Shown piece after piece: positions 12,260 through 63,849 of a DNA stretch of 64,000 nt (positions within the stretch are counted from its first letter, which is position 1; every line of letters starts with the position of its first letter). The stretch comes from Candidatus Heimdallarchaeota archaeon (lineage in GTDB: Archaea > Asgardarchaeota > Heimdallarchaeia > JABLTI01), in contig JABCTZ010000017.1 of NCBI GenBank assembly GCA_018238155.1, positions 116,949 to 180,948 of the forward strand, written 5' to 3'. The notes beneath the pieces were generated by a model. The model saw only the letters and a list, made by a program, of their open reading frames with translations, searched no databases and was not told where the DNA came from. Both the position numbers and the translations under genes were made by a program.

Positions 12260-12283
12260 GAAAAAAGCCTCGAGGTATTTTGA

Positions 12284-46954: not shown

Positions 46955-47026
46955 AAAAAAAGGCTGAAATTAAGCCGGAAGAGCACAAACGCTCTTTAGA
47001 TTTTTTTCTAAGAAATTATTTTAAAA

Positions 47027-47776: not shown

Positions 47777-47945
47777 GATTTGAAATCTCCAACCAAATGC
47801 AAACAATCAAACAAAAGAATGCTTGAGTCAGCACAAGAAAATAGTAGATGAAACACAAATTAAAAGGTAAGCATACATAAGCTAAACAAACGAAAGATTC
47901 AAAAAGAAAAAAAGAAAAAGAAAAAACAACAAAAAAGCAAATACA

Positions 47946-48054
47946 GGACGAGTGGTCTAGCCTGGCATGACGCTTCCTTGACGACGATAAAAAATTGCGA
48001 TTTTTGTCGGCTGAATGGAGGCTATCGAGAGTTCGAATCTCTTCTCGTCCACCA
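47946..48054 (+). tRNA. tRNA-Val(GAC) with anticodon-loop intron (~47984-48015), encoded CCA
   Basis: Acceptor GGACGAG/CTCGTCC, Val-type D arm GTGGTCTAG..ATGAC, stem CTTCC/GGAGG, T-loop TTCGAAT, intron hairpin CGATAAAAA/TTTTTGTCG. Confidence 0.9.
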
Positions 48055-48055
48055 A

Positions 48056-48634
48056 TTATTTTCTTCTTTCTTGTTTTCTATATCCTATTATTCCGAGAAT
48101 ATTTTTCTCTATGAATTCTTTTGTATCGACCCCTTCCATCAATCTCTCTTTTATTTCTTCTCTTATTTTTTCTTCCCCCTCTTCTCCTATTTCTCTATAT
48201 TTTCTTGTTCTCTCTTTTTCTTCTCTCTCTAGTTCTTCTTCTACTCTTCTCTTTCTCTGCGTTAGTTCTCTTATCTCTTCTCTTTTTTCTTTTTCTTGAT
48301 ATGCAGGCTCATTGTAATAATTCCACATTCTCTTCACTATTTCATTCTCTTTGTTTAGTGAGTATTTCCTTTTCTCATGTTTTAGTATCCCTTCTTTTGT
48401 TCCTTTTTGCAATTTCTTTATGAGCGTGCTTTTTTCCCAAGGCATTTTTTCTAGTAGTTCTGCTAGCGAGTATTTTTTCGAGTGTCCTCTCGTTATTTTT
48501 TCTTTTACGAATTCATTTGCTATTTGATATAGTATTTCTCCTTCTTTTTTCCTTATTTTTTTTATTTGCTCCACTACCTCCTTTCTTTCTTCTGTTTTTT
48601 TCGTCAATATTTCTAGTTCCTCTGTTATTGTCAC
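48056..48634 (-). CDS. Coiled-coil/wHTH protein (terminal gene of the Cas1-like operon)
   Basis: YSLAELLEKMPWEKSTLIKKLQKGTKEGIL..EKRKYSL wHTH pattern; stop codon 1 nt after the tRNA CCA; two decayed copies downstream. Confidence 0.75.
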   Translation of the reverse strand: MTITEELEILTKKTEERKEVVEQIKKIRKKEGEILYQIANEFVKEKITRGHSKKYSLAELLEKMPWEKSTLIKKLQKGTKEGILKHEKRKYSLNKENEIVKRMWNYYNEPAYQEKEKREEIRELTQRKRRVEEELEREEKERTRKYREIGEEGEEKIREEIKERLMEGVDTKEFIEKNILGIIGYRKQERRK

Positions 48635-48651
48635 TTTTTTCGGCCTCTTGT

Positions 48652-50535: not shown

Positions 50536-50594
50536 TTCTAAACCTCTGAAGTGATCGAGTATTCTTTTTCATTTTTTCTTCTCCTCTTCTCTCC

Positions 50595-51206
50595 TCACTC
50601 ATTTGTTTCTGACCAAAACCTGTTATACGTTTCTTCTCTTCCTATTCCTTCATCATAATTTGCATATACTCCTATTCGAAAATTCTGCAATGCTTCCTCA
50701 ACAATTTCCTCTGTTGAGCTATTGCTATTTTCATAAGTCGTTTTTGAGAAATTCTCTACTAATTCAACAATATCTCCCTCAGTTATTTTCTGTAGGATAG
50801 TATCAATTTCTTTGTCTTGTTCCTGATAGTTATTATTGAATTCCTTAGTTAGAACGATTTCTTTCTCAATTCTCCCTATTTCTTTAAGGAGATCTGTTTT
50901 CAATTCTTGTTCTGATTCTGCATAGCAAAAACATGGATCGATAAATGCCATTCTAGAATATAGTTCATTATTTGTTAGCGTGTGTTTTATCCACAGTTTA
51001 TTTTCCTTCTTCTTTGTTATCATTTTCTCTTTTTCTATCAAAGAATCTATTGCTACTGCAACTGACTTTTCGTGTCGATTAATCTCACAAGCAAGCCCTT
51101 TTCGACCTCTAACATACCATTCCCCTTCACCCTTTATTTCTCTCAGAACAAAGAACCAAATAATTTCTACTTCCACTTTATTCAAACGTTCAAAATTATC
51201 AATCAA
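50595..51206 (-). CDS. Putative wHTH DNA-binding protein
   Basis: GRKGLACEINRHEKSVAVAIDSLIEKEKMITKK HTH-wing pattern; first gene of the Cas1-like operon. Confidence 0.6.
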   Translation of the reverse strand: MIDNFERLNKVEVEIIWFFVLREIKGEGEWYVRGRKGLACEINRHEKSVAVAIDSLIEKEKMITKKKENKLWIKHTLTNNELYSRMAFIDPCFCYAESEQELKTDLLKEIGRIEKEIVLTKEFNNNYQEQDKEIDTILQKITEGDIVELVENFSKTTYENSNSSTEEIVEEALQNFRIGVYANYDEGIGREETYNRFWSETNE

Positions 51207-51284
51207 TTATTTTTGTCCCTTCATATCACTGCTAGTATTCTACTGACAAAAATAGCTTTATAAAGTGCTAAATGGTCTCTTTTT

Positions 51285-52064
51285 TTGTTCTTTAAAAGGA
51301 TAATTTTCCAGTGTTTATTGAGAAAATTGCTTGAGAACGATTTCATCCTTAGTAAAACTGGTTTTATTGCCTACTTAGAATGTCCATTCCAGTTCTATCT
51401 ACAGAAGGAACTACAACATCACAAAGGATCAGGTGGAAACATTGATCACTCTGGATATGAATCCTTTTTACAGAGAGGTCTGGAAAAACACAAATGGTTG
51501 GAATGTTTCTATCAAGAGTATGGAACAAAAATAAGGAATGATGTTTATCCTAGATTAGACCAATCGGATGAAGATGCTTTTTGGAAACAACAATTCATAG
51601 ATTTTGAAATTAAACGATATGTCTCAGAGCCTAAATTTTGGGAACCTGTAGCAGTGGAGTATTATTTGAACGATGGAGTTTTTTGTGGGAAAATTGATCG
51701 AATTGATAGAATAAGTGATTTAGGTCATTGCCGTATAGTAGAATATAAATCGTCTCCGAAAGAATTCGATAAAGAAGAATTACTTTTCTATGCAGTTCTT
51801 TTAGCAAGTCAGTTACCTACTTTGGATTTACCAGATATTACTAAAGTGACTGAGTTAGGCATGTATTATTATTCATCTTCAGAATATTTTTCAACATTAA
51901 TTACAATGGACAATATTGTTACTTTTAGAGAGTATCTTGAAGAAATACTCCTGGAAATAGTAAATCCACAATCAATCAAAAAGAAAAAAAGATGTGATTT
52001 TGCTGTTACTACTTGTCTTTTTAGGCATATTTGCCAAAGAATTAACATTAAAAACAGAAAATAA
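51285..52064 (+). CDS. Cas4/AddB-like PD-(D/E)XK nuclease with four-Cys cluster
   Basis: LSKT....YLECP.QFY, G...H, AVE, GKIDRID, IVEYKS, LLFYA, C-terminal C......C.....C. Confidence 0.85.
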   Translation: MFFKRIIFQCLLRKLLENDFILSKTGFIAYLECPFQFYLQKELQHHKGSGGNIDHSGYESFLQRGLEKHKWLECFYQEYGTKIRNDVYPRLDQSDEDAFWKQQFIDFEIKRYVSEPKFWEPVAVEYYLNDGVFCGKIDRIDRISDLGHCRIVEYKSSPKEFDKEELLFYAVLLASQLPTLDLPDITKVTELGMYYYSSSEYFSTLITMDNIVTFREYLEEILLEIVNPQSIKKKKRCDFAVTTCLFRHICQRINIKNRK

Positions 52065-52200
52065 TTGGACTTTCGAAAATATAGGTTCTTTATCCTTGGA
52101 AAAATTTCGGACTTTCTAATTTTATACCTTTTTTTTGATGGAAAAAAATCGGACTTTCGAAGTTCTTGCAGACCAAAGGATATTTTTTCGGACTTTCGAA
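52056..52200 (+). repeat. Four phased direct repeats, core (TC)GGACTTTC(G)AA
   Basis: Cores start at 52067, 52109, 52151, 52190 (spacing 42/42/39 bp). Confidence 0.85.
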
Positions 52201-52511
52201 AAAACTACTTTGCTAAGAATACCAAAAATCGTCTCTAGAACCGTCTAAGTAACAAAAATGCTGCGGAAATACCTCCCTTTTATACTTATACTGATTTTCT
52301 ATTGGTGTCTAAATTTTGTTTCAGAATATTTGATAAGTTTTTGAAATAATTGTTGAAAAAAAGCTAATTGAAAAATCCCAATTGAAGCTCACATGTCAAA
52401 CCGTAAAAGAGGACTCCATCTTGCGATGGAGAAATAGGCGTACAGCCGTCTATTGATTTCCTTACCTTTTATTTGAGCATTAATTTCAAATATACAGAAA
52501 TTCTGAAATCT

Positions 52512-54161
52512 TTACAAAAATATCTCATCTCGCCATTGTTTCTTGTATCGATAAAATTCCTTTACCGTAAGTGTAGGAAAATCGATTGAATAATTATAAA
52601 ACGTTTCAAGAAAGTGAAGGAGAAGTCTACAATTAATACGGGAATTTATTAATTTAAGGCTAAAAATTTCTTCTAAAATAACGGCTACCTCGTCACTAAT
52701 TTCACTTACTAAAACATAATTTATCTTGGGTTTAAGTAGGGGTAGTATAATTTCTAATTCAGTACTTGGTTTTAATGGAAGTGTTATTGGGCTTGAATTA
52801 ACAACTTGATATGTAATATTACTTTTATTCTGTTCTAATATTTCGTAGAGAGTTCTAGTATGAGGTTGATTATTCAATATCTCTTTCAGCATTGAATATG
52901 GTAAACCTCTCTTATTCTTCTCCATATTAGAATAACTGCCTTGTGCAATTTTAAATTGATCATCCATAACAACATAAGTTCTTCTAGCACGGTATTCTTT
53001 AAGGAAATTACCTAAACCAAAAATAAAGAGAGAGTCAAATAAATCAAAATTGTAATAACCATCTTTTGTTAGAACATCTTTTTTCAAACCTTGAAATACA
53101 ACATATTTTTTATTATGTAGAAGATAATCCAATAAATCATTGCTTTTTTTAGGGTTTAAAGAACCGATTAATTCGACATAACGAAGTTTATCTCGAGCTA
53201 ATAAATAGATCATAACTGATCCGTTGGAGTTTTGTGGAACTTTTACTTCAAAACTATTCAAGTTTAGAAACTGCTTAAAATCAAGAAGATATCGTTCACT
53301 CGCGCTAGTAAATGAGATTCGATTCTTGAATGATCCATCAGCATCCATTGCACCACGCCAGTAGATATTCCGGAAAGGTCTTCCAAGTTGTTTGAATAGA
53401 AGTGGTTCTCGGAGTGAAGCATACTTTGCTCCTTCGATAGTGTGGTCGGTTAAAAAATTAATAATTCGAACTACCATAGCAGAACGTAACTCAATATTCC
53501 AAGCATTTCCTGTAAGAAACATCTCTCCAGGGTCATTGAAATTCTGTTCATAAAGTTTTGAGAGTAACAGCAAGAATTCTTTGGTTTCATCAGTTACCCG
53601 GAAATTATGCCTGTGTAAATGCCCGTCCCCATTTGCTACACCGCAAAGATACACAATAGCATTAGTTAATTTCGTTGGAATCGAGTATTTCTTTCCTCGA
53701 GCACTTTCAAAGTATAATTCCTCAATTTTTGGGTTAGTTAAGGGAAGATCAAGGATAGCACAAGCACAACGATACAACGGATAGGGCATTGCTCCCCGTT
53801 TGAGATACGTTTCAAATCTTCTCTTCCACTCCATGATACCTGAATTAATGGATCTGTAAAAGTAATCTCGAGTGAATTCAGCGATAAGCAAAATCCTTTT
53901 TTTAATTAGTGTTTTTTCCTCATCTGTGAGAACGAGGAAAGGAAATCTCGAGAGTATCCTGTCATTATCTTTTTCCTTTACAAAATCGATTTTTCTAACC
54001 AAAATTGGAAAAAGATGTAAGGTGTAATTGGTAGTATCAAAAAAAGAATTTATTCTTTGTATTCCAGCTGTAAGTAGCTTGTTTGCAGTTACCCATTTAT
54101 TCATTGGAGTGGGTTTCGCATCAAGTAACAAAGGATCATTTTGCCAAGTAAGAGGAGCCAA
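52512..54161 (-). CDS. Free-standing double-motif LAGLIDADG endonuclease-like protein with possible HTH
   Basis: YLCGVANGDGHL and YWRGAMDADGSF; later IAQGSYSNMEKNKRGLP XRE-like helix; no intein termini. Confidence 0.75.
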   Translation of the reverse strand: MAPLTWQNDPLLLDAKPTPMNKWVTANKLLTAGIQRINSFFDTTNYTLHLFPILVRKIDFVKEKDNDRILSRFPFLVLTDEEKTLIKKRILLIAEFTRDYFYRSINSGIMEWKRRFETYLKRGAMPYPLYRCACAILDLPLTNPKIEELYFESARGKKYSIPTKLTNAIVYLCGVANGDGHLHRHNFRVTDETKEFLLLLSKLYEQNFNDPGEMFLTGNAWNIELRSAMVVRIINFLTDHTIEGAKYASLREPLLFKQLGRPFRNIYWRGAMDADGSFKNRISFTSASERYLLDFKQFLNLNSFEVKVPQNSNGSVMIYLLARDKLRYVELIGSLNPKKSNDLLDYLLHNKKYVVFQGLKKDVLTKDGYYNFDLFDSLFIFGLGNFLKEYRARRTYVVMDDQFKIAQGSYSNMEKNKRGLPYSMLKEILNNQPHTRTLYEILEQNKSNITYQVVNSSPITLPLKPSTELEIILPLLKPKINYVLVSEISDEVAVILEEIFSLKLINSRINCRLLLHFLETFYNYSIDFPTLTVKEFYRYKKQWRDEIFL

Positions 54162-54221
54162 GTAGTGCCACCAAAGATGTTTATCACTAGCTTTGTTGTG
54201 TTAAACTACTTAAACTTAAAG

Positions 54222-54923
54222 CTAAAGTGACACTTTCTCATTAGCTTTTTCAATTAGCCAATTCATGTCAAGAATTTCTAAAGAATCAATGGCAAAGATT
54301 TCAATACCAGCTTCCCAAAGAATAAGCCCAATTCCTTGAGCTGCAAAACCTAGTTTACCTGTGATGTTTACTTTTAATTTTTGAGTGATTGTATCATAAT
54401 AATTCTCTAAATAAAAATCACGCAGAAATCGCATTTCAATAGATGAAGATGAATTATTCCTTAGATAAAGAGCTCCTGCGAGTATGACTTGATCTGTGTC
54501 TTCTGCATTGATTGTTAGATCAGTAAAAATCTGTTGTGTTAGGTTGGCAATGTCTACAGAATGCTTTGCTAATACCCAATACACTCGGGCACGAACACTA
54601 GGGGATATATCAATGATTAATGGAGAAATATATTGTACACTTTCTTTCTGTTGAAATGATTCAAGATAGAGTACGGATTTTTCTCGTAGAAAGCTTTCAT
54701 GATGTGATAGGAGCTTTTGTGAAATAGAAATTTTTACCTCTTCAGATACCTTCTTCTTTGCTATGAGAAAGTCTAACAAGGTGTTAAGTTGGGGTGCTGT
54801 TAGAGAACTCAAAGTATTCTCATATAACTCCTCAAATTCTTCTAAATTATCTTCTACTAGGAGAATTTGTTTAAAGATTATTTCCGGAATTGTTTCTTGA
54901 AGTTTTTTCTGAAGAAAGGTCAT
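54222..54923 (-). CDS. HEAT-repeat-like helical protein
   Basis: SFLREKSVLYL and SPSVRARVYWVLAK HEAT-like units. Confidence 0.55.
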   Translation of the reverse strand: MTFLQKKLQETIPEIIFKQILLVEDNLEEFEELYENTLSSLTAPQLNTLLDFLIAKKKVSEEVKISISQKLLSHHESFLREKSVLYLESFQQKESVQYISPLIIDISPSVRARVYWVLAKHSVDIANLTQQIFTDLTINAEDTDQVILAGALYLRNNSSSSIEMRFLRDFYLENYYDTITQKLKVNITGKLGFAAQGIGLILWEAGIEIFAIDSLEILDMNWLIEKANEKVSL

Positions 54924-54933
54924 AATATCACAT

Positions 54934-57036
54934 TTATTTAGTAATTTCTAAAGCGAATGTTTCTGTGCGGTAATCATGAAACATTGAGTCTATATTTGGA
55001 AGAAAATCATCCTTCACTTTGATGTAAAGTTGACTTTTATTACAATTAATAGTTTTTTGATGTAAATTTATTTCTCCAATAGCAAACCTGATTTTTGAGT
55101 AGAGATTTGGTTCATACTGAAATTCTCCTCTATCCTTACAGCTTATTGCTTGCATCTCTCCATTTTTAAAGATAAGGTGATCCACCTCAAAATGCTTGCC
55201 ATAAAAGGAAAAGAGAACGTTTGAAACAACTTGAAAATCCATTCTTTCAAGCAATTCTCTGGTGTGTTTCTCGTATTCTGTACCGGATTCAGTTTTGAAT
55301 CTTTTAAACTTTATAATATTGCATAATGGGGGTAAATTATTCGAAATAATTTCCCACTGTTCTAGTAAAATTTGATATTCTCTTCGGTTGTAAAACATTT
55401 TGCTTCTAGCTTTGAGAATATGATAATTTCCATTCTTTGCTAAAGTAGAATGAAGTGTCTGCAAGATTTCTTCTACATTATCAATTGGTTGAAATACACT
55501 GAACTTCTTTTGTAGTCTCATATCAAAATCTGCACTATTATTTAATCGATCCGAGATTACCTTGTAAAGTAGAGAGTAATCAGTTTTAGTTGTGTTCATA
55601 AGAAAACAATATTGCTCAATAAGTTGTTTAGCTTTTGCAGGTTTAGTATGTGTTTGCCGTAATACTTTGAATGCTTCTTGTTCTAAATCTTTTTTTGTAG
55701 TTAGTTTATGTGTAACTGGATGAATGAGTTGATTCATTCTTTTATTGTCTTTTAATAATGTTAAGAACTCATTAATACGCTCTAAAAATAGCGTTGGTTT
55801 TTTAACAAGTGCATTCACCTCATCCCTTCCAATAAGAATGATCTTTTTTGCTAAACCATAAAGTTTAGTTATATTCTTACCAAATTCTGTAGTAGTTACC
55901 TCAAAATTAAGAAAAACTATTGAGCAAATATTGCTCTTTTTTATTTCGTCTTGTAAATAGAGTAACTCGCCTAATATTTCAGTAAGCGGCTCATTATTTT
56001 TTTCTGCTGTTTTAATCTCGATTAAACCTATTAATTCATTCCAAATAAGCAATCCATCAAGACGTTTAGTAATTTGGGGACGATTCGAAGTTGTAATTTT
56101 AGTTTCCGAGAATAACTTGCTGTTTTCCTCTGTAAAAACACTTTTTAAAATCGTCCAAACATTCGACTCAAAGTCCTTATCAACATGTCGAGATTTATCT
56201 GTCCAAGCAGTTGTTAATTGTTGTATATTATATCCTGCTTGTCTTAGCTCCTTGGTTAGTGTTAGATCTTGTTTTGCATGTTTTGATAGTTCAAATATTG
56301 GGTGAGTGAATATTATTTTTATTTTCTTTCTGGGACCGTAATATGGAATAGTTATTTTATTTACAAGTTGTTTCTTTTTCTTTCTTTGTGAAAACTTTAG
56401 AATCGTTTTTGATCCATCGTCAATAGTTCCAACGACATAGTTATTTTTTAATGTCCACCAGTCTTTAATATATCTGCCAAGCTCTTGTGATAACTCAATA
56501 TCTCCAGATTCTCCTAGAGAACAATAACATTCAATTTGTAGTTGCTTTGTGTTTGTTTGGTAGATATCAAATGAATTTCCTCTTCTTTTACTTCCTAAAA
56601 GCCTTAGTGTTTTTTTCTCTTCTTTGATGTTGTTATATTCAAGTAGTTCTCTGTTTTTGAAAAACAACCCTGTTGGTTTTAATCCATTAATGATACAGGT
56701 GATTTTAGAATCTCTATATTGAGAGGTTATCTTATTCATCTCATTCATGTTTGATAATACTAAGAACCATCCGTTAGTTTTATTTTCAAGAGAGGCTATT
56801 TGGTTGATTATTATCTCTTTATTTCGATTGTCCTCATTCACAATAATGATCATTCTTATTGTATTTTTGTCTTCTTTACTTGATCTTACTATATCCATCC
56901 AATTCAGAATTCTTACAGGAATATGTATACTTGACAGAGTTAGTTTTCTATTGATTATGATTGTTCCATCTGTAAAAATCTCGAATGTTGTTCCTCTCCC
57001 AGGTTTTCCAGCTTTGTAGAGTAATTTTCTTATCAA
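54934..57036 (-). CDS. Large protein with two putative PD-(D/E)XK nuclease domains
   Basis: DFE...RLDGLL...IEIKT and EYE...FEVDHLI...ISCKD (Mrr/NERD-like). Confidence 0.65.
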   Translation of the reverse strand: MIRKLLYKAGKPGRGTTFEIFTDGTIIINRKLTLSSIHIPVRILNWMDIVRSSKEDKNTIRMIIIVNEDNRNKEIIINQIASLENKTNGWFLVLSNMNEMNKITSQYRDSKITCIINGLKPTGLFFKNRELLEYNNIKEEKKTLRLLGSKRRGNSFDIYQTNTKQLQIECYCSLGESGDIELSQELGRYIKDWWTLKNNYVVGTIDDGSKTILKFSQRKKKKQLVNKITIPYYGPRKKIKIIFTHPIFELSKHAKQDLTLTKELRQAGYNIQQLTTAWTDKSRHVDKDFESNVWTILKSVFTEENSKLFSETKITTSNRPQITKRLDGLLIWNELIGLIEIKTAEKNNEPLTEILGELLYLQDEIKKSNICSIVFLNFEVTTTEFGKNITKLYGLAKKIILIGRDEVNALVKKPTLFLERINEFLTLLKDNKRMNQLIHPVTHKLTTKKDLEQEAFKVLRQTHTKPAKAKQLIEQYCFLMNTTKTDYSLLYKVISDRLNNSADFDMRLQKKFSVFQPIDNVEEILQTLHSTLAKNGNYHILKARSKMFYNRREYQILLEQWEIISNNLPPLCNIIKFKRFKTESGTEYEKHTRELLERMDFQVVSNVLFSFYGKHFEVDHLIFKNGEMQAISCKDRGEFQYEPNLYSKIRFAIGEINLHQKTINCNKSQLYIKVKDDFLPNIDSMFHDYRTETFALEITK

Positions 57037-57044
57037 GTCGAATC

Positions 57045-57108
57045 ACACTATCTTAACACTATATCAACACTATAGTATAATAATACTTAAATCTTATGGT
57101 TACACTAT
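57045..57108. promoter_or_regulatory. ACACTAT direct-repeat operator in divergent promoter
   Basis: ACACTAT at 57045, 57056, 57067 (11-bp phase) and 57102. Confidence 0.65.
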
Positions 57109-57126
57109 AGTTCTTAGTGAACTAAG

Positions 57127-57285
57127 ATGCCTGTGAAATTCAAACGAAAAGTCATAGATTTGAGTAATAGTTTAGTCGTGAATATACCCCGTGAAATTGC
57201 AGATGAATTGGGAATAAAGAAAGGAGATACGATCATCGTAACCCTTGAGAACAGTCATTTTTGTGGAAGGAAAGAAGAAAAATAA
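57127..57285 (+). CDS. AbrB/MazE/SpoVT family DNA-binding protein (52 aa, not in ORF track)
   Basis: MPVKFKRKVIDLSNSLVVNIPREIADELGIKKGDTIIV. Confidence 0.85.
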   Translation: MPVKFKRKVIDLSNSLVVNIPREIADELGIKKGDTIIVTLENSHFCGRKEEK

Positions 57286-57418
57286 CAGGCAATAATCTGA
57301 AATAAAATTCAAAGCGGTTCATGCAAGCGTGATTTATCGCTGTAAGCGATGAATAGCGAGGACACGAGTCTGCGCCCAGCAAAGGTTTGAGTCATTTCTT
57401 TTTGATTGCAATATTACT

Positions 57419-58528
57419 TTATTTTCTTTTCTTGCGTTCAGCAACTTCTTTTATTCCCGCAAGTAACGGAGCTTTAATCTCCTCTTCTTTGTTTTCTTCT
57501 ACTTCCTCCTCTTCTTTTCTTTGTGGTAAATCAATTGTTTCTTCATCAGCTATTCCATAATTGGTTAAGAAAAACTCTGTCGTTTCGCATGGAAGAAATG
57601 AACAACTATCTACTTTCATTCGTCGAGAATTATCCCTTAATTTCCTCAAGAACAAACGCATATCCGAAGCATGCTCTATAGCTTCTCCACCTGCAGGTTT
57701 AATTGGAGAATATTTGTGATTAAATCCATGATTAGCAATAACATGATTTGTGAAGATAATAGCACAATTAAACCCAAGAGCTAAACGCTTAAGAAACGCT
57801 AACAAACTTTGCAAATGCTTTTGCATGATGATGGTTTCATTTATTGTTATGTATCTGCTTTCAAAAGGGGTCATCAATGAATCAATGATTACCAATCGGG
57901 TATCAAATGCTTGCACGTATCCTGGCAGTCGATCTATTGCTTGTTGGAAGTTCCTCATTTGTTCTGCTTGTACTATGAATAAGTTGCTTAGTAATTTCTC
58001 TTCTGCTATTTCGAAACGCTTTCCTATCCGTAAATAGTGTTCACAATGAAAGAAACTGTTTGTTGTAATATAGATAACTGGACTATCCAATCCACCTTTT
58101 TCTACCGGCATTTGTGCAGTCACCGCTGCTGTCATACAAGTTTGCGTTTTTCCTGAGCGATACTCTCCAACGATTTCCGTTAGCATTCCTGTTCTAAAAC
58201 CCCCTTCAAGCAAGGTATCAATCTCTTTTGAACCACTAGTAAAACTTTTCTGGGATTGGAGCTGATTCTCCCAATATTCTTCTACGTTCTGAAATAATTT
58301 TCCCCGAAACATATCTTGAGAAGCTCGACAAAGAGCTTGAGCAGTTCTCTCACTTATATTTGGTATTTTGCAATAATCAGTTTCAGTTAATACTGTCAGT
58401 GCTCGTGCATCATAGATGCCAAAATCTTTGAGTGCTTTAATAGAAATTTTCGGAATTCCATATTTTAATCTATTTTTCTCAATAAAATCTGCTATATCAT
58501 ATCTCACATTAATTGGCATTTTCTTCAT
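57419..58528 (-). CDS. RadA/Rad51 paralog, probably degenerate
   Basis: HhH N-domain, GEYRSGKT, LVIIDS, GG....H....RL.LRK; catalytic YIDTE replaced by YITTN. Confidence 0.85.
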   Translation of the reverse strand: MKKMPINVRYDIADFIEKNRLKYGIPKISIKALKDFGIYDARALTVLTETDYCKIPNISERTAQALCRASQDMFRGKLFQNVEEYWENQLQSQKSFTSGSKEIDTLLEGGFRTGMLTEIVGEYRSGKTQTCMTAAVTAQMPVEKGGLDSPVIYITTNSFFHCEHYLRIGKRFEIAEEKLLSNLFIVQAEQMRNFQQAIDRLPGYVQAFDTRLVIIDSLMTPFESRYITINETIIMQKHLQSLLAFLKRLALGFNCAIIFTNHVIANHGFNHKYSPIKPAGGEAIEHASDMRLFLRKLRDNSRRMKVDSCSFLPCETTEFFLTNYGIADEETIDLPQRKEEEEVEENKEEEIKAPLLAGIKEVAERKKRK

Positions 58529-58575
58529 TTATACACTGAAAAATTTTCTTTAAAAACAACAAAAATTGAATGTTT

Positions 58576-58610
58576 GGTAGTTCACGGTTCAAATCCGGGA
58601 TCGCCCACCA
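58576..58610 (+). repeat. tRNA 3'-fragment repeat R1
   Basis: GGTAGTTCACGGTTCAAATCCGGGATCGCCCACCA (3 mismatches to R2). Confidence 0.92.
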
Positions 58611-58629
58611 TTCTCTTTTCATTCTTTTC

Positions 58630-58860
58630 TTATAATTGCTCATAAAATTCGTCTAGAGTGATTTTTGCTAATCGTAGTGCTCCTCTCAAAGTTCCTGTTT
58701 TTAGTTCTTTATGTAGTGGAACTACGGTACCAACTTTCCCCTCATTTGTTTGCTTAGAGAGTCGAACATGACTTCCTTTCCTTCCTGAGATACTAAACCC
58801 AAATTTATTACATAGAATTTTGATAACTTTTTCACCTGAAACAGGTTTATACTTTGGCAG
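58630..58860 (-). CDS. hicA: HicA family toxin (CTG start; not in ORF track)
   Basis: (M)PKYKPVSGEKVIKILCNKFGF....RKGSHVRL...VVPLHKELKTGTLRGAL; GGAG upstream of CTG; overlaps hicB end. Confidence 0.85.
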   Translation of the reverse strand: MPKYKPVSGEKVIKILCNKFGFSISGRKGSHVRLSKQTNEGKVGTVVPLHKELKTGTLRGALRLAKITLDEFYEQL

Positions 58861-59083
58861 TCTTATCTACTCCCTTTGGTGAAACTTCAAAAGTAGTGAT
58901 TATTGGATGAGTGTCAGTTGTTAGTGGGAACTCTTCGAGATATAATTCTGTTGCTTCCACTAAATTTTCTAGTGCTTTCTCAATTGTTTTTCCCTGACTT
59001 ACTGTGCCTACTTGAGGACATTCTGCAACGTACATATCCTCTTCTTTGTAGATAACTGCTGTCAATGTAGACATCTTTATCAT
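58847..59083 (-). CDS. hicB: HicB family antitoxin (short form)
   Basis: YVAECPQVGTVSQGKTIEKALENLVEATELYLE. Confidence 0.9.
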   Translation of the reverse strand: MIKMSTLTAVIYKEEDMYVAECPQVGTVSQGKTIEKALENLVEATELYLEEFPLTTDTHPIITTFEVSPKGVDKTAKV

Positions 59084-59146
59084 TTTGTACTACCTCACTA
59101 TTATTCTTTAATTTTCTTATAAAAACCAAACTCTTATTTTAAATCA

Positions 59147-59181
59147 GGAAGTCCCCGGTTCAAATCCGGGATCGCCCACCA
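59147..59181 (+). repeat. tRNA 3'-fragment repeat R2 (best-preserved copy)
   Basis: GGAAGTCCCCGGTTCAAATCCGGGATCGCCCACCA: variable loop, perfect T-arm, 3' acceptor strand, ACCA. Confidence 0.95.
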
Positions 59182-59623
59182 ATTATTTTCTTCTTTCTTG
59201 TTCTCTATACCCTATTATTCCGAGAATATTTTTCTCTATGAATTCTTTTGTTTCTATCCCTTCCATCAATCTCTCTCTTATTTCTTCTCTTATTTTTTCT
59301 TCTTCCTTTTCTCCTATTTCTTTATATTTTTTCGTTATCTTCTTTTTCTAGTTCTTGTTCCAATCTTCTCTTTCTCTGCGTTAGTTCTCTTATCTCTTCT
59401 CTTTTTTCTTTTTCTTGATATGCAAGTTCATTGTAATAATTCCACATTCTCTTTACTATTTCATTCTCTTTGTTTAGTAAGTATTTCCTTTTCTCATGTT
59501 TTAGTATCCCTTCTTTTGTTCCTTTTTGCAGTTTCTTTATGAGCGTGCTTTTTTCCCAAGGCATTTTTTCTAGTAGTTCTGCTAGCGAGTATTTTTTCGA
59601 GTGTCCTCTCGTTATTTTTTCTT
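59182..59623 (-). pseudogene. Truncated, frameshifted copy of the 192-aa wHTH gene (duplicate of 48055-48504)
   Basis: Near-identical DNA beginning exactly after CCA (ATTATTTTCTTCTTTCTTG); small deletion, 5' part missing. Confidence 0.88.
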
Positions 59624-59720
59624 GTAAAACACTATTCTTTTTGATATTGTGCAATATTGTTATAAACACAAATAATTAATAGTATATTCCTCACATTTTT
59701 TAAATACTCTAATGTGAGAT

Positions 59721-60740
59721 TTGAGTAAAATTGAGAGTGTAAGAATGTCACTAACTGAGAACTCTAATTTTCCTAATTTTTCTTATTCAGATGCAATGTT
59801 GTTTTCTGTTCCCAAAGGTGATCTTTATCCGATTGGTTTGTTAACTGATAAAAAACAATCTGGAAAAAGAAATGATTTAGATATTAAGATAAAGATTCTC
59901 TCCGAGCTTAGAAATAGTTTAGATGAAACTGGAAATAATATAATAACCGAAATGCCTCTTCCTGAAAGATTTTCTAAAGCTAACGTTCTTGAAAAGTGGT
60001 TATTAAACACAAATCAATATTTCAATAAGGTTGAGGATGAAATATCCGCTGAAAAAGATTCCTCTTTTAGTTTACTCATTGAAACTCTTGAGCTTAAAGA
60101 AAAAATTGAATATAAAGTTCAAACTAATAATTATCAAAATATTGATCGCTTAATTAAACTCTATGATCGGAAATTAATTGATGCGTTTAAACTTATTTAC
60201 AAATTAATGCTATCAATCCGAACTAATTTGAGTATAATGTTTCTTGATTCAGAACTTCCCCCCGAATTTATTTCCACTATAAGTAATACAATGAACTCCT
60301 CATTAACTTTTATTGAATTTCTTCAATCTGAACAAGATTCAATTTTTGTTGATTTAAATAAATATAAATCCGGACGAACAACTGTAAAAAGAACTAAACC
60401 AATTTTAGCTAGAATTGATGCATTAGATGAAGATCATAATAAATTGCTGCTAAATTTCCAAAGATTGCTTTTCTTCATAGAAATTTGGAATTCCCCAACC
60501 TTGGAAGTATTATTCACTGATCAAGACATCCATTATGATATTAAGAATTTTGAATCCCATCAAGGATTTTTCATTAATTCATTAAATAAATTGAACCAGT
60601 TTGCAAAAGATTTTCATCACAAGGTAATAAATGCTGCTATGGAACGCAAACAATCCATCCCATTTTCACTAAAGGAAAAGGATTCAAGGAAAGACGATGA
60701 TGCTATCTCTTTATTTGCAAAAATAATTCACTCCTATTAA
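59721..60740 (+). CDS. Helical protein of unknown function upstream of a PIN gene
   Basis: 339-aa ORF, 19 nt before the PIN gene; no motif recognised. Confidence 0.65.
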   Translation: MSKIESVRMSLTENSNFPNFSYSDAMLFSVPKGDLYPIGLLTDKKQSGKRNDLDIKIKILSELRNSLDETGNNIITEMPLPERFSKANVLEKWLLNTNQYFNKVEDEISAEKDSSFSLLIETLELKEKIEYKVQTNNYQNIDRLIKLYDRKLIDAFKLIYKLMLSIRTNLSIMFLDSELPPEFISTISNTMNSSLTFIEFLQSEQDSIFVDLNKYKSGRTTVKRTKPILARIDALDEDHNKLLLNFQRLLFFIEIWNSPTLEVLFTDQDIHYDIKNFESHQGFFINSLNKLNQFAKDFHHKVINAAMERKQSIPFSLKEKDSRKDDDAISLFAKIIHSY

Positions 60741-60759
60741 GATATGAGAGGTATGGGAA

Positions 60760-61491
60760 ATGAAGTATGTTTGTTTTGACACAAACTATCTCTTGGCTGT
60801 TTTAATACCACTAGATAATTGGAAATCTGTAATTAAGATGTGTGAAGCTGAAATTGCCGAACTTGTTAATAGAAAGAAAATTAAAGTTTTTATTACTGAT
60901 AAAGTTGAATCCGAAGCTAACAATAGGATAATGGATATTTCCAAGAATGCTTCCCAACATTTTAGAAAATTATTTCATAAATTGAAGTCTACTGATTTAA
61001 AGAAGCCTTTTAATAAATCAAGCATTTTGAGTTTACGAAAAGAATTACAATTAATCTTAAGAGACGAAAATGACAAAGTGATTAGAAATCAACTATACTT
61101 CTATGAAGATTATCTTTTAAAAAATATAAATGATTTTCCTAAAAAACCCAAGAAGATTCTAATTGCTGAGTGTTTGAGTGAAATAAATGAAATTTCATTG
61201 AGATTTGATACTGAGTTGCAGGTTTACAATATAATGATTATTCAAAAACCAACTATTCAAAATGAACTTGATAAACTCAATGCAATAGAAAACAGAATAA
61301 AAGTTATGGTTCATAATTATAGTGATAGCGAGATTTTAGCCACATTTATTTATTTTATAAATGAAGAAAATGTTGAAGGGATATTCGTTACTCATGATTT
61401 TGTTGATTTATTATTAAACAGTTTATATCTTGAAGAAGAATTTAAAGAAGTTCATATAGTTAGACCACAATATGTAAAATTCCTTGTTTAG
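60760..61491 (+). CDS. PIN-domain ribonuclease with large helical insertion
   Basis: VCFDTNYLL, ITDKVESE, DSEIL, FVTHD. Confidence 0.78.
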   Translation: MKYVCFDTNYLLAVLIPLDNWKSVIKMCEAEIAELVNRKKIKVFITDKVESEANNRIMDISKNASQHFRKLFHKLKSTDLKKPFNKSSILSLRKELQLILRDENDKVIRNQLYFYEDYLLKNINDFPKKPKKILIAECLSEINEISLRFDTELQVYNIMIIQKPTIQNELDKLNAIENRIKVMVHNYSDSEILATFIYFINEENVEGIFVTHDFVDLLLNSLYLEEEFKEVHIVRPQYVKFLV

Positions 61492-61507
61492 TTTTTTCAA
61501 TTATTTA

Positions 61508-61531
61508 GTACTAAATCTGAATCGTTCAACA
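61508..61531 (+). repeat. Degenerate tRNA 3'-fragment repeat R2b
   Basis: AAATCT-GAATCGTTCAACA vs AAATCCGGGATCGCCCACCA (14/20, mostly transitions), 3 nt before the stop of the third wHTH-gene copy. Confidence 0.6.
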
Positions 61532-61534
61532 CTT

Positions 61535-61826
61535 TCATTCTTTTCTTCTGTATCCTATTGCTTCTAGTGTTTTTTTCGTTACAAGTCCTCTTACTTCTCC
61601 CCCCTCAACAAATTCTGCAATTATTTCCTTTCTAAATTCCTCTTCTTCTTTCTTTGTTGCTTCTCTATATTTTCTCCTTTTCTTTTTCTCTTCTTTCTCC
61701 AGTTCTTTAACCAATTTTCTCTTTTTTTGTATCAAGGTCCTAATTTCTTCTGTTTTTTCCTTTTCTTGATAGTTTGGTTCATTGTAATAGTTCCATATCC
61801 TTTTCACCAATTCATTTTCTTTCCTT
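61535..61826 (-). pseudogene. Third, more diverged 3' fragment of the 192-aa wHTH gene
   Basis: KENELVKRIWNYYNEPNYQEKEK...IGYRRKE vs KENEIVKRMWNYYNEPAYQEKEK...IGYRKQE. Confidence 0.8.
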
Positions 61827-62144
61827 TTATTCTTCACTAACTGTAATATATCCTTCTCCATTTTTAAATCCTATATCTCGGAAATAGGTAATTTGAGATC
61901 GAAAATATTCTTGATTATAGTTGATTTTTTCAATAACAAACTCAATTAAATCTTCAGAAGGATTTTGTGCAATAAATTCTTTTAATAACTCCCTTTGTTG
62001 TTGTAAAATAAAATTTATTTCACTAACTTTCTCAATATGGGAAAGAATTTCATCATTCAAAATTTTGAATTGTGTTAGTAAATAAGATGTATCCAAAGTA
62101 GTATCTCCATATCTATCAATAATGAATTCTTTATATTTAAACAA
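61827..62144 (-). CDS. Hypothetical protein or gene fragment
   Basis: 105-aa ORF filling the R2b-R3 cassette; no motif. Confidence 0.35.
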   Translation of the reverse strand: MFKYKEFIIDRYGDTTLDTSYLLTQFKILNDEILSHIEKVSEINFILQQQRELLKEFIAQNPSEDLIEFVIEKINYNQEYFRSQITYFRDIGFKNGEGYITVSEE

Positions 62145-62171
62145 AAGCAGTATTGAAATGTTGATTTATTC

Positions 62172-62201
62172 TTCCCTGTTCAAATCCGGGATCGCCCACC
62201 A
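62172..62201 (+). repeat. tRNA 3'-fragment repeat R3
   Basis: TTCCCTGTTCAAATCCGGGATCGCCCACCA. Confidence 0.92.
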
Positions 62202-62293
62202 TTTTCTTTCTCTCTTTTTTTCTCTCCTAGCAAGTACTATTGTTTTTATAGTACAAAAACAGTACTATTTTAGTGATTAGTTGAGGTGGTATT

Positions 62294-62530
62294 TTGACTA
62301 CAATATCCGTTTCATTAGACGAAGAACTTCTTGAATGGTTAGATCAGCTTATTGAACGTGGTGTGATCAAGTCTCGTAGTGAAGCCGTTCGTGGTGGAAT
62401 TTTCTCTTATGTTCAAGAAAAGCTTGGTATTTCTTCTCGAGCTGATTTACGTGAGTTTCTTAAGAAACAGCAACAGAAACCTTTTCAATCTGGTGTTGAA
62501 GCAATTCGTTCAGTGAGGCAAGAAGAATAA
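62294..62530 (+). CDS. Ribbon-helix-helix (CopG/NikR-type) antitoxin
   Basis: TISVSLDEELLEWLDQLIERGVIKSRSEAVR; 1-nt overlap with PIN gene. Confidence 0.88.
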   Translation: MTTISVSLDEELLEWLDQLIERGVIKSRSEAVRGGIFSYVQEKLGISSRADLREFLKKQQQKPFQSGVEAIRSVRQEE

Positions 62531-63009
62531 TGGCTCTTTATCTGGACACCAATGTCTTCTATCATGCTTATTGTCCTATTGAAGATGCTTCGATAGTTGA
62601 TTGGTTATTTTCTCAGGTTCATCCTGACTTTCCTGCTATTACTAGTGAGTGGTGTCTTATTGAGATGTTTCGAGCCTTCAAAAAACAAGTAAATTTGGGA
62701 ACTATCTCAGAAAAAAATGCTGAAATAGCTATTGACTTTTTTTTGAGTGATGTTGGAGAGATGGTTAAGAAAAAGCTCCTTTTACTTGCTCCCGTTTCTC
62801 ATGCTCTTCTTATTACTTCTCGAGAACATATCTTTGCTTCCAATCTATATGCTGCTGATGCCTTACATGCTACTACTGCTCTAAAATATAAAGCTAGAGC
62901 TTTCATTACTTTTGATTCTGACTTTAAATCCAATCTCAAATCCATGCCTATTTTTAATCCCTCTTCTCAAAATTTCAAAGCAAGTATTGGTAAATTGTTA
63001 TCAATTTAA
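62530..63009 (+). CDS. vapC: VapC/PIN toxin
   Basis: LYLDTNVF, TSEW..IE, LYAADALHATTA, FITFDSDF. Confidence 0.9.
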   Translation: MALYLDTNVFYHAYCPIEDASIVDWLFSQVHPDFPAITSEWCLIEMFRAFKKQVNLGTISEKNAEIAIDFFLSDVGEMVKKKLLLLAPVSHALLITSREHIFASNLYAADALHATTALKYKARAFITFDSDFKSNLKSMPIFNPSSQNFKASIGKLLSI

Positions 63010-63027
63010 TCAATATAGAAAAAAGCT

Positions 63028-63057
63028 TCCTCGGTTCAAATCCGGAATCGTCCACAA
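63028..63057 (+). repeat. tRNA 3'-fragment repeat R4
   Basis: TCCTCGGTTCAAATCCGGAATCGTCCACAA. Confidence 0.85.
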
Positions 63058-63528
63058 TTATCTTTTCTCTTGTTTATTGTATTCTTCCCATAAAATTATA
63101 TTGAATTTTTCGTTTATGCTCTCTATTATATCATTCCACTCATCGTGCACTTTCTTCTTTAGTTCTTTATCTAGTGTTAGCATTCCCTCTGCGTAATAAA
63201 CTGCTGTTGCAACCATTAAACAATCAATATGATCACTGTGACTTTTTCGCAGTTCGCTAGCTAATGCTTGTATTTCTGCATAATGTATGGGAATAATTTC
63301 TATTTTTTCTAGGTATTGTATTGCCGTAATTCCCTGTGTTAATTCTTCAGTTGATATCTTCTTCTTATTGACTAACTTGCTTCCTTTTGCAGACACTTCA
63401 AAAATCACCAACTCTGATCTGATGATCACTTCGTTTTCCATTAGTTCTAGTATTGCTTTTCTTGGGAATTGTACAATATCTACAGCTAAAAATGGCATAA
63501 AGAAAGAGCTATCCAATAACAGTTTCAT
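63058..63528 (-). CDS. vapC: VapC/PIN toxin
   Basis: LLLDSSFFMP, SELVIFE, DHIDCLMVATA, LTLD; stop abuts R4. Confidence 0.9.
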   Translation of the reverse strand: MKLLLDSSFFMPFLAVDIVQFPRKAILELMENEVIIRSELVIFEVSAKGSKLVNKKKISTEELTQGITAIQYLEKIEIIPIHYAEIQALASELRKSHSDHIDCLMVATAVYYAEGMLTLDKELKKKVHDEWNDIIESINEKFNIILWEEYNKQEKR

Positions 63529-63758
63529 TTCTCTGTATCCTTGCTTAACTTCCTTCTATGTTCTTTGAATTCTTCAAAGGTAATTGTGACTTTTGCTGGT
63601 TTTTCCAATAATTCTTCAGGTGTTGCAACCTTTTCTACCACTAATCTTCCTTGCACTATTCTGTACAAAACTCTTTGACCTTTTTTTAGTCCTATTTTTT
63701 CTCTGACTTTTTTAGGTGGAAATAACTCACCTTTAGAACCTACTTTACCTATAGACAT
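63525..63758 (-). CDS. AbrB/MazE family antitoxin
   Basis: KVGSKGELFPPKKVREKIGLKKGQRV; 4-nt overlap with PIN gene. Confidence 0.9.
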   Translation of the reverse strand: MSIGKVGSKGELFPPKKVREKIGLKKGQRVLYRIVQGRLVVEKVATPEELLEKPAKVTITFEEFKEHRRKLSKDTEK

Positions 63759-63814
63759 AATTTCACCAGATAAACATTCTTTTCTCTGGTATAAAAACCT
63801 TTCATAAAATCTTT

Positions 63815-63849
63815 GGAAGTCCCTGGTTTAAATCTGGGATCGCCCACCA
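63815..63849 (+). repeat. tRNA 3'-fragment repeat R5
   Basis: GGAAGTCCCTGGTTTAAATCTGGGATCGCCCACCA (3 C>T vs R2). Confidence 0.93.

Follow-up and report, generated by a model that had tools for sequence, protein, structure and literature searches.

Tail copies downstream of tRNA-Val(GAC)

The window, a 64,000-nt stretch of the genome of a Heimdall-group (Asgard) archaeon, contains a tRNA-Val(GAC) gene followed by repeats that resemble the tail of a tRNA and do not match that gene. We asked where the repeats come from and how they came to lie behind this tRNA. The + strand of the window carries five copies of a 25-nt core, ending at 58610, 59181, 62201, 63057 and 63849, with 0, 0, 1, 3 and 2 mismatches, respectively. 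The chance expectation is zero, with no match in 100 shuffles. A sequence-only reading of this DNA had proposed a fixed 35-nt 5' boundary at GG(A/T)AG. R1 (58576-58610), R2 (59147-59181) and R5 (63815-63849) do start in this way (GGTAG, GGAAG and GGAAG), but R3 (62167-62201) and R4 (63023-63057) do not, and the proposed boundary stands only in part. R2 is identical over 35/35 positions to the tRNA-Val(GAC) tail of the congeneric genomes G001 and G006, while R1 has an exact core and three mismatches in its first 10 nt. The first 10 nt of R3 do not resemble the tRNA. R5 matches at 32/35 positions and represents a subtype with T at position 61 that also occurs in fragments of G009, G008 and G004. 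Across the five copies, 16/50 positions in the first 10 nt are mismatched to the genus-typical tRNA tail, compared with 6/125 in the last 25 nt. Because mismatches crowd into the first 10 nt, and R3 and R4 lack the common start, the conserved unit is the last 24-25 nt, equivalent to tRNA positions 52/53-76, from the T loop to the CCA. Local alignment also gives a candidate sixth, decayed copy on the + strand at about 61495-61530. Its score was reached by 72 of 1000 shuffles and is not significant alone; it occupies the same place as a clear copy (fragment B) of L035.

The repeats had been ascribed to a different tRNA. The observations behind that claim are sound: R2 and 48020-48054 have 21/35 nt in common, and neither the tRNAs of the window nor, in a genome-wide tRNA search, those of the whole 4.08-Mb assembly have a repeat-type end. 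The repeats are nevertheless the 3' part of tRNA-Val(GAC) itself, in the allele of congeners G001, G004 and G006. All three have an intact tRNA-Val(GAC) with the repeat-sequence end at the orthologous site, and an A-rich upstream flank is common to their loci and that of the window. The intron of the window's tRNA-Val(GAC) is also present in G001 and G008. Judged by sequence, the repeats are tail copies of this one valine tRNA gene in the form that sister species carry, an origin that we regard as established.

The anchoring tRNA is a divergent allele

The anchor tRNA-Val(GAC) (47946-48054, + strand) scores 42.6 bits against the Rfam tRNA model and is detected by ARAGORN with the intron option, but not without it. 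The gene has a 32-nt intron at about 47984-48015, an encoded CCA, acceptor arms GGACGAG/CTCGTCC and a T stem of GAGAG/CTCTT. Of its 77 exon positions, 21-22 differ from the repeat-type allele. Exon identity to congeners is 71-81%, compared with 84-99% for three control tRNAs: Glu(TTC), 88-99%; Val(TAC), 84-96%; and Thr(GGT), 87-97% among the seven congeners whose Thr(GGT) gene has no extra intron. A search of 82 further genomes of the class gave no match to the 3' half of the anchor at ≤2 mismatches. By T arm, the genus has at least five tRNA-Val(GAC) alleles, with a conserved 5' half. The T arm closest to the anchor's is that of L034, whose Cas1 is only 67% identical to that of the window and whose element is just slightly closer than others; our search found no donor of the window's allele. 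These comparisons identify the window's own tRNA-Val(GAC), and not the repeats, as the outlier.

An attR copy of tRNA-Val(GAC) past the window, raised earlier as a way for the repeats to be passive cargo, was not found in the assembled DNA. The contig stops with the window and has no sequence beyond 64000, and the 4.08-Mb assembly has no other copy of the anchor's last 24 nt at ≤5 mismatches. The assembly is a metagenome bin (90.7% complete, 5.9% contamination) with no second tRNA-Val(GAC) contig. The window's final 106 nt are found again on contig C26, at one end, and on the 2-kb C38, at both ends. The C26 continuation has one more typical-type repeat copy, followed by sequence that in G001 directly adjoins the intact tRNA; this is apparently where the array natively ends.

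A solo-Cas1 element adjoins the tRNA

The CCA of the tRNA is directly followed by a 10.5-kb integrated element, E1 (48055-58575), which ends at R1. The left end of E1-type elements is marked by ORF192 (48056-48634, - strand), a wHTH-like protein with its stop codon 1 nt past the CCA. An Atlas search with this protein returned wHTH leads only. Homologues are found at 59322-59669 and 61535-61861, on C43 and in G004, with another presumed from 63859 to the end of the window. Next to it is a 627-aa solo Cas1-family protein (48652-50535, - strand) with an N-terminal wHTH and Cys clusters. For its AlphaFold model (pLDDT 84), each of the top 50 PDB matches is a Cas1 or a casposase (best E 8e-8), and residues E387, H468, D481 and E484 align with Cas1 motifs. 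Pfam Cas_Cas1 is matched by 3 of 23 members of the family, at best with 8.9e-8. We consider the Cas1 fold demonstrated.

The conserved core of E1 also includes a 203-aa protein without a family match (50595-51206, - strand), whose position is kept in L034, L035, L036 and C6. It is followed by a Cas4-like PD-(D/E)XK nuclease (51285-52064, + strand; Pfam PDDEXK_1, 5.6e-16) and a 549-aa LAGLIDADG-endonuclease-like protein (52512-54161, - strand). The latter is kept in all E1-type elements; its Pfam LAGLIDADG_3 match is weak (0.0028, below cut-off), and its translation shows two LAGLIDADG-type motifs. The cargo region (54222-58528) encodes a 233-aa protein, a 700-aa protein (weak NERD, 6e-4), a 52-aa AbrB/MazE-type protein on the + strand (MazE_antitoxin, 4e-7) and a RadA/Rad51 paralogue (Rad51, 2e-51).

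Paralogues of E1 with the same gene order directly adjoin tRNA-Ala (C43) and tRNA-Leu (C6), and elements of this gene order also follow tRNA-Val in L034, L035 and G004. The order tRNA, ORF192, Cas1 recurs in L034, L035, G004 and C43, and two other studies have contigs whose alignment extends to the anchor's final base. On this sequence evidence, the tRNA/E1 junction is a natural one. E1-type elements have no terminal inverted repeats and no PolB. Pfam searches of the arrays and their surroundings found no tyrosine or serine recombinase, and the only two Phage_integrase matches in the whole genome are not at an array. The solo Cas1 is the sole integrase candidate, a putative and unproven role. 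Repeat length depends on the tRNA, at about 24-35 nt behind Val, 32 behind Ala and 41 behind Leu, which does not agree with a Cas1-type ruler.

Toxin-antitoxin cassettes and element remnants

Downstream of R1 is a HicA-HicB toxin-antitoxin cassette (58630-59083, - strand) with HicB-like Pfam matches. Its HicA-like frame (58630-58866) has no common start codon; L035 has a homologous pair that carries the annotation HicA_toxin. R2 is followed by a second, truncated E1 left end with an ORF192 remnant (59182-59669, - strand), 88-92% identical to 48055-48484. The duplicated post-tRNA segment described earlier is thus borne out, 48031-48484 recurring after R2 at this identity. A two-gene cassette (59721-61491, + strand) encodes a 339-aa protein of no known family and a weakly PIN-like 243-aa protein, a pair also found in L035 at 82% nucleotide identity. 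Beyond it lies a third left-end remnant with a 105-aa ORF (61535-62144, - strand); the remnant is 108 aa long and 93% identical to ORF192 of C43.

Two further toxin-antitoxin cassettes precede R4 and R5. An RHH (CopG) and PIN pair (62294-63009, + strand; Pfam RHH_1 2.8e-7, PIN 6.9e-9) recurs in G009, L035 and G008 at 93.5%, 91.8% and 87.7% nucleotide identity, respectively; for L035, this 92% compares with 85% for the host HD gene. A PIN and AbrB/MazE-type pair (63058-63758, - strand; Pfam PIN 1.1e-8, MazE_antitoxin 8.6e-5) is also present on G004 contig C218 at 81%. A further unit begins at 63859 and runs to 64000 on the - strand, with an ORF that has its stop just after R5 and is open at the contig end; it is putatively another ORF192-type end. 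The RHH-PIN, HicAB and 339/243-aa pairs all occur in L035 in a changed order. The cassettes, as their sequences indicate, are discrete units shuffled between genomes.

Each repeat is a junction product

The first ~10 nt of the repeat vary, and they move together with the cassette on their left; the end of the RHH-PIN cassette is identical in four genomes. L035 fragment D is a hybrid, in which the RHH-PIN end is joined to a 24-nt core of the host's own tRNA type. The repeats on both flanks of RHH-PIN in L035 have the host core type, the right-hand one being this hybrid, and copies of both core types are interleaved there. The hybrid, which we take as firmly demonstrated, places the junction near tRNA position 52, and the left ~10 nt belong to the left unit, so each repeat is a junction product. 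An att site of each cassette's own, with crossover in CCACCA, had been suggested; the part that stands is that the left ~10 nt travel with the cassette. The core follows the host tRNA in L035, and the join falls near position 52.

Such arrays are a general system in this genome. Downstream of tRNA-Lys(CTT), four tail copies fence four toxin-antitoxin cassettes, and tail copies also lie downstream of tRNA-Ala(GGC), tRNA-Ala(TGC), tRNA-Leu(TAG) and tRNA-Pro(TGG). In the Lys, Ala, Leu and Pro arrays, the copies match their own anchor.

A tRNA-anchored stack with a probably swapped anchor

Since the repeats carry the tail of the same gene as found in sisters, and the gene itself is odd, we favour a tRNA-anchored stack of units in which the anchor allele was later swapped. 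We think this reading of the site, as an integration hot spot in a Heimdall-group (Asgard) archaeon, probably correct, with appreciable doubt. Mobile units would pile up downstream of the single tRNA-Val(GAC) gene, inserted by the solo Cas1: one complete 10.5-kb solo-Cas1 element, what is left of at least three others, and compact toxin-antitoxin cassettes, every unit with a tRNA-tail copy behind it. The tails would preserve an allele still intact in several sister species, and each join would fall near tRNA position 52. The array head would most likely have been exchanged in one step by recombination, either by homologous exchange, with the conserved left flank and the resident Cas1 element as arms, or by an exchange accompanying the arrival of E1. 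An earlier suggestion had the array put together at another tRNA or host and then moved. A weaker version of it survives, in which the other tRNA falls away: the array may have been built on another tRNA-Val(GAC) allele, with the anchor later changed or imported by recombination.

No model that we tried accounts for every junction. The first downstream copy likewise differs from the anchor in G005, G008 and L035, which requires either frequent swaps or units that bring their own cores. The second option was the main idea of the sequence-only reading, in which every unit has a complete genus-typical att site (compare integron attC) and recombines with any tRNA-Val allele at its extreme 3' end, the anchor being unchanged and the repeats cargo. 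The left 10 nt that travel with the cassette, the intact R1 and R2 cores, and typical-type copies behind non-typical anchors in G000, G005, G008 and L035 all fit this idea. We consider it unlikely, however, as the host-type cores and the hybrid of L035 imply that the core is not tied to the cassette and that the join lies outside CCACCA. The anchor-matching copies of the Lys, Ala, Leu and Pro arrays also argue against it, and the 25-mer is on no free element in the viral contig collection. We are similarly doubtful that E1 and a typical-type array were built in a strain carrying the typical tRNA and inserted together, as a single composite, at the window-type tRNA, with an anchor-matching tail copy at the far end in unassembled DNA. 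The array does run off its contig where the assembly graph branches into C26 and C38, the bin is 90.7% complete, and in L035 typical-type copies are embedded in an other-type array, as composite insertion would give; but no such tail copy was found in the 4.08 Mb at the threshold above, and C26 resembles a native array end.

An assembly artefact, joining typical and window-type strains within the shared ORF192/Cas1 element or at 48054, is improbable. Contamination of the bin (5.9%) and the ORF192-type segments repeated within the locus would allow one, but these segments are just 88-92% identical, the tRNA-ORF192-Cas1 junction recurs in four independent assemblies, contigs from two other studies reach the last base of the window-type tRNA, and the bin lacks a second tRNA-Val(GAC) contig. 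We give very little credence to divergence of the anchor in place, by point and compensatory mutations selected to escape further integration. In its favour, most of the differences are compensatory (pairs 3-70, 7-66, 10-25 and the T stem), the genus is variable in its T arm, and relatives have T-loop and D-loop introns. Against this, T-arm types do not track host-flank similarity, and the presumably neutral R1 and R2 have 0 changes in 60 nt (both 25-nt cores and all 35 nt of R2 are unchanged), compared with 21-22 in 77 nt of the anchor. The lack of core decay indicates that the anchor was probably replaced by recombination and not by drift, as the swapped-anchor reading proposes.

Relationship to known systems

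Integrons carry cassette arrays, an example being chromosomal integrons rich in toxin-antitoxin cassettes. The present arrays are similar in having one- or two-gene cassettes, shuffled between genomes and separated by a recombination-site-like repeat that is a hybrid of two partners. They differ in lacking IntI and an attI beside an integrase, in having cassettes in both orientations with their own promoters, and in a repeat that is a tRNA tail and not attC.

Tycheposon islands of Prochlorococcus are tRNA-anchored genomic islands derived from integrating elements (bioRxiv 10.1101/2020.12.28.424599, which also cites the sublocation classes of Williams 2002). As in such islands, a full tRNA is proximal, the stacked units are separated by partial tRNA copies, remnants and cargo build up, and close relatives differ in content. 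Unlike them, the present arrays have no tyrosine or serine recombinase in or near them, their units are very small, self-promoted toxin-antitoxin pairs, and the anchor allele is not that of its own copies.

Casposons are Cas1-solo transposons that target tRNA 3' ends and, in Methanosarcina, occur in tandem separated by target duplications (PMC9939771; PMC8464041). Here too, the only gene that resembles an integrase encodes a Cas1-family protein, insertion is at the 3' end of a tRNA gene and units are stacked head to tail. The present elements, however, lack PolB and terminal inverted repeats, and their Cas1 has an N-terminal wHTH and Cys clusters. Their repeats are tRNA-dependent and 24-41 nt long (13-15 nt in casposons), and the hybrid and mixed-type copies do not resemble simple target duplications. 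Asgard archaea have diverse Cas1 homologues, some thought to represent new mobile elements (Makarova et al. 2020, CRISPR J, as cited in PMC8730458). To the extent that this citation describes them, the protein of E1 is alike in being a diverged solo Cas1 of Heimdall genomes, encoded outside CRISPR loci.

Origin of the tRNA-tail repeats

Five copies of a 25-nt core lie on the plus strand between 58586 and 63849, ending at 58610, 59181, 62201, 63057 and 63849 (R1 to R5), with 0, 0, 1, 3 and 2 mismatches; none would be expected by chance. The intact tRNA gene at the head of these copies is tRNA-Val(GAC) at 47946-48054 (+), the anchor, which carries a 32-nt intron. ARAGORN with default settings calls no tRNA in the window, and the intron option or Rfam is required to find it. 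The locus thus has an intact tRNA at one end and five tail copies downstream, as in an att array, with copies that match the genus-typical allele of the gene (typical-type) and not the allele now present (window-type). The sequence-only reading had described the repeats, their mismatch to the anchor (R2 shares 21 of 35 nt with its tail) and the lack of a tRNA with a repeat-like end; the core search, and tRNA calls in the window and the whole assembly, bear out all three. It had also proposed a fixed 35-nt unit. R1, R2 and R5 do begin with GGTAG or GGAAG, as that proposal holds, but R3 and R4 lack GG(A/T)AG, and against the typical-type tail the five copies have 16 of 50 positions mismatched in their first 10 nt versus 6 of 125 in their last 25 nt. 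In R1, the first 10 nt contain three mismatches and the following 25 none.

We searched for the core in 40 relatives and found it in five of the ten congeners. In three of them (G001, G004 and G006) it ends an intact tRNA-Val(GAC) gene whose last 35 nt are those of R2, and an A-rich upstream flank is common to these genes and the window's own. The window's 32-nt intron is also nearly letter-identical in the tRNA-Val(GAC) of G001 and of a further congener, G008. Because intact congener genes at a shared flank have the R2 tail, the repeats are the tail of the same gene in its genus-typical allele. The different source tRNA that had been suggested gives way to a different allele of tRNA-Val(GAC). 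The original observation is confirmed in part and its interpretation is partly supported.

The suggested genome-wide hunt for more fragments did yield a further typical-type copy, at 46243-46310 (-) of contig C26. This copy lies 1.8 kb past a 106-nt overlap with the window's end and has a 31-nt T-loop insertion, which is homologous to the second intron of an intact tRNA-Val(GAC) in another congener (G007, contig C88). The orthologous tail copy in the congener G009 has no such insertion.

Two other origins for the repeats were considered and rejected. The 3' half of a split tRNA does not fit, as the assembly has no matching gene or half with the same acceptor strand, and the copies start at position 42 at the earliest instead of at the intron site. 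The homology that extends from position 42 back toward the intron end is weak and A/T-rich, and no weight is placed on it. A CRISPR array does not fit either: the intervals measure 0.5-10.5 kb and contain genes, the repeat is a tRNA tail, and the canonical Cas1 of the genome is encoded on another contig.

Genome bin and assembly of the locus

The bin comprises 4.08 Mb in 46 contigs (33% G+C) and is 90.7% complete with 5.9% contamination. All named relatives of one bin protein are from Candidatus Heimdallarchaeota, and many tRNA genes of the bin have introns and an encoded CCA. The window is the final 64 kb of contig C13, whose last 106 nt are found again on C26 (one end) and on C38 (both ends). 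The duplicated segments of the locus are only 88-92% identical and are therefore not collapsed repeats.

The assembly may contain a strain chimera within E1, the 10.5-kb element (48055-58575) that directly follows the anchor's CCA. This degree of identity between the repeated segments speaks against such a chimera, as does the junction of the tRNA with ORF192 (the gene at the left end of E1) and a Cas1-like gene, an order that recurs in four independent assemblies. Relatives' contigs published in two other studies can be aligned as far as the final base of the window-type tRNA; past the tRNA end, one contig runs on into another ORF192-type gene. Three runs contain just 5-6% of the words, in the form of relatives' contigs; they show similar tRNA ends elsewhere but do not bear on whether the assembly is right. 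Base skew changes sign exactly at the tRNA (window 46000-50000; AT skew from +0.36 to -0.43, GC skew from +0.07 to -0.36). The likely cause is that nearly all rightward genes lie on the minus strand and are K/E-rich.

A divergent anchor tRNA

By sequence comparison, the anchor is the outlier. A search of 82 further genomes of the class, with up to two mismatches allowed, did not find its 3' half, and exon identity to relatives is 71-81%. Control tRNAs compared with congeners gave 87-97% for Thr(GGT), among those congeners whose gene lacks an extra intron, 88-99% for Glu(TTC) and 84-96% for Val(TAC). Congeners share a conserved 5' half of tRNA-Val(GAC), but their T arms fall into at least five complementary versions and their acceptor 3' strands into four. 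Among the four tRNAs compared, the targeted tRNA-Val changes fastest, and whole T arms are swapped between relatives.

Three accounts of the divergent anchor were weighed. Gradual divergence in place is unlikely, since the anchor differs from the typical allele at 21-22 of 77 exon positions while the cores of R1 and R2 show no change (R2, none in 35 nt). Simple integration of E1 would have left R1 as a copy of the present type, and the anchor-type tail copy for which the sequence-only reading had proposed a search is found nowhere in the assembly. The most parsimonious reading would have the array head exchanged in a single recombination step, with the conserved left flank and a resident Cas1 element serving as arms. 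The only other tRNA-Val(GAC) found with a GAGAG/CTCT(C/T) T arm is on contig L034, where it adjoins the closest known relative of the E1 Cas1, itself only 67% identical. Gene-by-gene identity singles out no donor of the anchor and left E1 clearly, and it lends weak support to L034. The first downstream copy also mismatches the anchor in G005, G008 and L035, a Heimdall MAG contig; either exchanges are frequent or a part of the model is missing.

The L034 gene (3640-3800; ERZ27252208 contig) is without the anticodon-loop intron, has a D-loop insertion of approximately 31 nt and is not called by ARAGORN. When metagenome contigs were searched with a 28-nt pattern of the anchor-type 3' half, two of its positions being degenerate, 108 contigs matched; the 80 loci examined were all unrelated tRNAs from other organisms.

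Junctions of the repeats

A cassette encoding an RHH-PIN pair has the same right end in the window's genome (G000), G008, G009 and L035. In the first three a typical-type core comes after this end. The anchor of L035 has a different T arm, and there the end is followed by the host's own core type, with the hybrid join between positions 51 and 53. On the left side of the L035 cassette the copy is host-type as well, and two typical-type copies lie further in. On the evidence of the L035 hybrid and the R1 pattern, the left 10 nt of a repeat belong to the left-hand unit and the 24-25-nt core to the target.

Cassette order in L035 differs from that of the window, and the RHH-PIN cassette is 92% identical in nucleotide sequence as against 85% for the host HD gene. 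The units are discrete and shuffled. Neither a textbook att exchange at one fixed crossover nor a target duplication of fixed length fits all junctions, and the mixed and hybrid repeats are unlike plain target duplications. On the reverse complement of L035, just 15 nt separate two tail copies that differ in allele type (12202-12267); this may be the scar of a composite insertion or of a deletion. Viral contigs scanned for the 25-nt core yielded no copy.

Cassettes and related arrays

E1 is followed by HicAB, by a truncated second E1 left end fused to a two-gene cassette, and by a third E1 left-end remnant; next come RHH-PIN and PIN-AbrB, and last an ORF still open where the contig stops. The HicA-like frame (58630-58866, -) overlaps hicB at its end and lacks an ATG, GTG or TTG start, reflecting either an unusual start or decay. 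Content at the same site differs between relatives, with other unit sets and orders in G005, G008, G009, G004 and L035.

Other tRNA genes of the genome head similar arrays. At C19:9789-14158, tRNA-Lys(CTT) and its four tail copies fence ParD/RHH-PIN, MNT-HEPN, AbrB-PIN and MNT-HepT cassettes; these tail copies all share six extra bases past the tRNA end. On contig C43, a 10.2-kb E1 paralogue lies downstream of tRNA-Ala(GGC); a 32-nt tail copy bounds it, and a second copy comes next. tRNA-Leu(TAG) on contig C6 adjoins a third E1 paralogue with an inverted core module and a 41-nt copy as its boundary. tRNA-Pro and tRNA-Ala(TGC) also have tail copies. Repeat length varies with the tRNA (24-35 nt for Val, 32 nt for Ala, 41 nt for Leu). 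At the Lys, Ala, Leu and Pro sites the copies match their anchors, and tRNA-Val is the exception. ARAGORN also calls a tRNA-Met with a 1378-nt 'intron' at C21:101013-104126, with a tail copy 1.6 kb downstream; a tRNA head with an insertion and tail copies is more likely here than a real intron.

A Cas1-like protein in E1

E1 encodes ORF192 (a wHTH-like protein), a 627-aa protein, a 203-aa protein, a Cas4-like nuclease, a LAGLIDADG-like protein, two large proteins, an AbrB-type protein and a RadA paralogue. The predicted structure of the 627-aa protein (pLDDT 84) matches only Cas1 and casposase structures, and its invariant residues E387, H468, D481 and E484 align with the catalytic motifs of Cas1. 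Three of its 23 relatives hit the Pfam family Cas_Cas1; the protein itself falls below the Pfam threshold. These results identify the 627-aa protein as a Cas1. A profile comparison with the genome's own Cas1 gave a probability of 0.14%, and only the motif alignment was used. Searching PDB sequences with the 627-aa protein returned only wHTH matches, PHROGs and NCBIfam were uninformative for most E1 proteins, and ORF192 has only wHTH-type leads in the Atlas, all below 0.9.

Three more distant relatives of this solo Cas1 (24-29% identity) are encoded at C42:37367-39205, C17:11292-12878 and C19:25295-26839; the distance from the tRNA-Lys array is 11 kb for one of the three. Just past the Cas4-like gene, a 21-nt direct repeat is present in two copies 84 nt apart (52057-52161).

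Insertion of the units and relation to known systems

No ORF of 48055-64000 matches a tyrosine or serine recombinase Pfam family, and the Phage_integrase matches of the genome are only on C8 and at 71 kb of C19. In and near the arrays, where these recombinases are absent, the solo Cas1 is the only integrase-like gene. That it inserts the units is a possibility, with the odds somewhat against it.

The locus shares features with several known systems. Like att-integrase elements it has variable content and tail copies, but it is without a tyrosine or serine recombinase. It has a Cas1-family protein, as casposons do, but no polymerase family, PolB included, among the E1 ORFs, no terminal inverted repeats (the element ends of E1, C43 and C6 score no better than shuffles) and no fixed target duplication of 13-15 bp. 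Unlike integrons, it has no IntI/attI tyrosine recombinase, and its cassettes lie on both strands. Since these hallmarks are missing and the repeats are long, tRNA-dependent and hybrid, the elements are not casposons, integrons or classical att-integrase elements. In their behaviour they most resemble tRNA-anchored islands, for example those that tycheposons build (bioRxiv 10.1101/2020.12.28.424599).

A joint reading of these features, which we regard as speculative and rather improbable, is that a solo Cas1 family, without PolB or inverted ends and with Cas4-like and LAGLIDADG-like partners, would insert itself, and small toxin-antitoxin cassettes in trans, at the segment of tRNA genes that runs from the T loop to CCA. 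The arrays would then be integron-like and shuffled, their repeats would be junction hybrids, and the targeted tRNA genes would answer with rapid T-arm replacement and with T- or D-loop introns. If true, this would be a third use of Cas1 beside casposons and CRISPR adaptation.

Implications

The core of the puzzle is ordinary, in that the repeats from an apparently unknown tRNA are fossils of the same gene. Less ordinary is an Asgard lineage in which toxin-antitoxin cassette arrays stand behind several tRNA genes, with no classical integrase in view and, as the one integrase-like gene, a very diverged solo Cas1 directly at the tRNA. If this Cas1 does the joining, the known range of Cas1 enzymes widens; if it does not, an unrecognised recombinase is at work. 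The tail copies also preserve tRNA alleles and introns in a dated record, which has a bearing on a long-standing idea, that introns in tRNA genes guard against integration.
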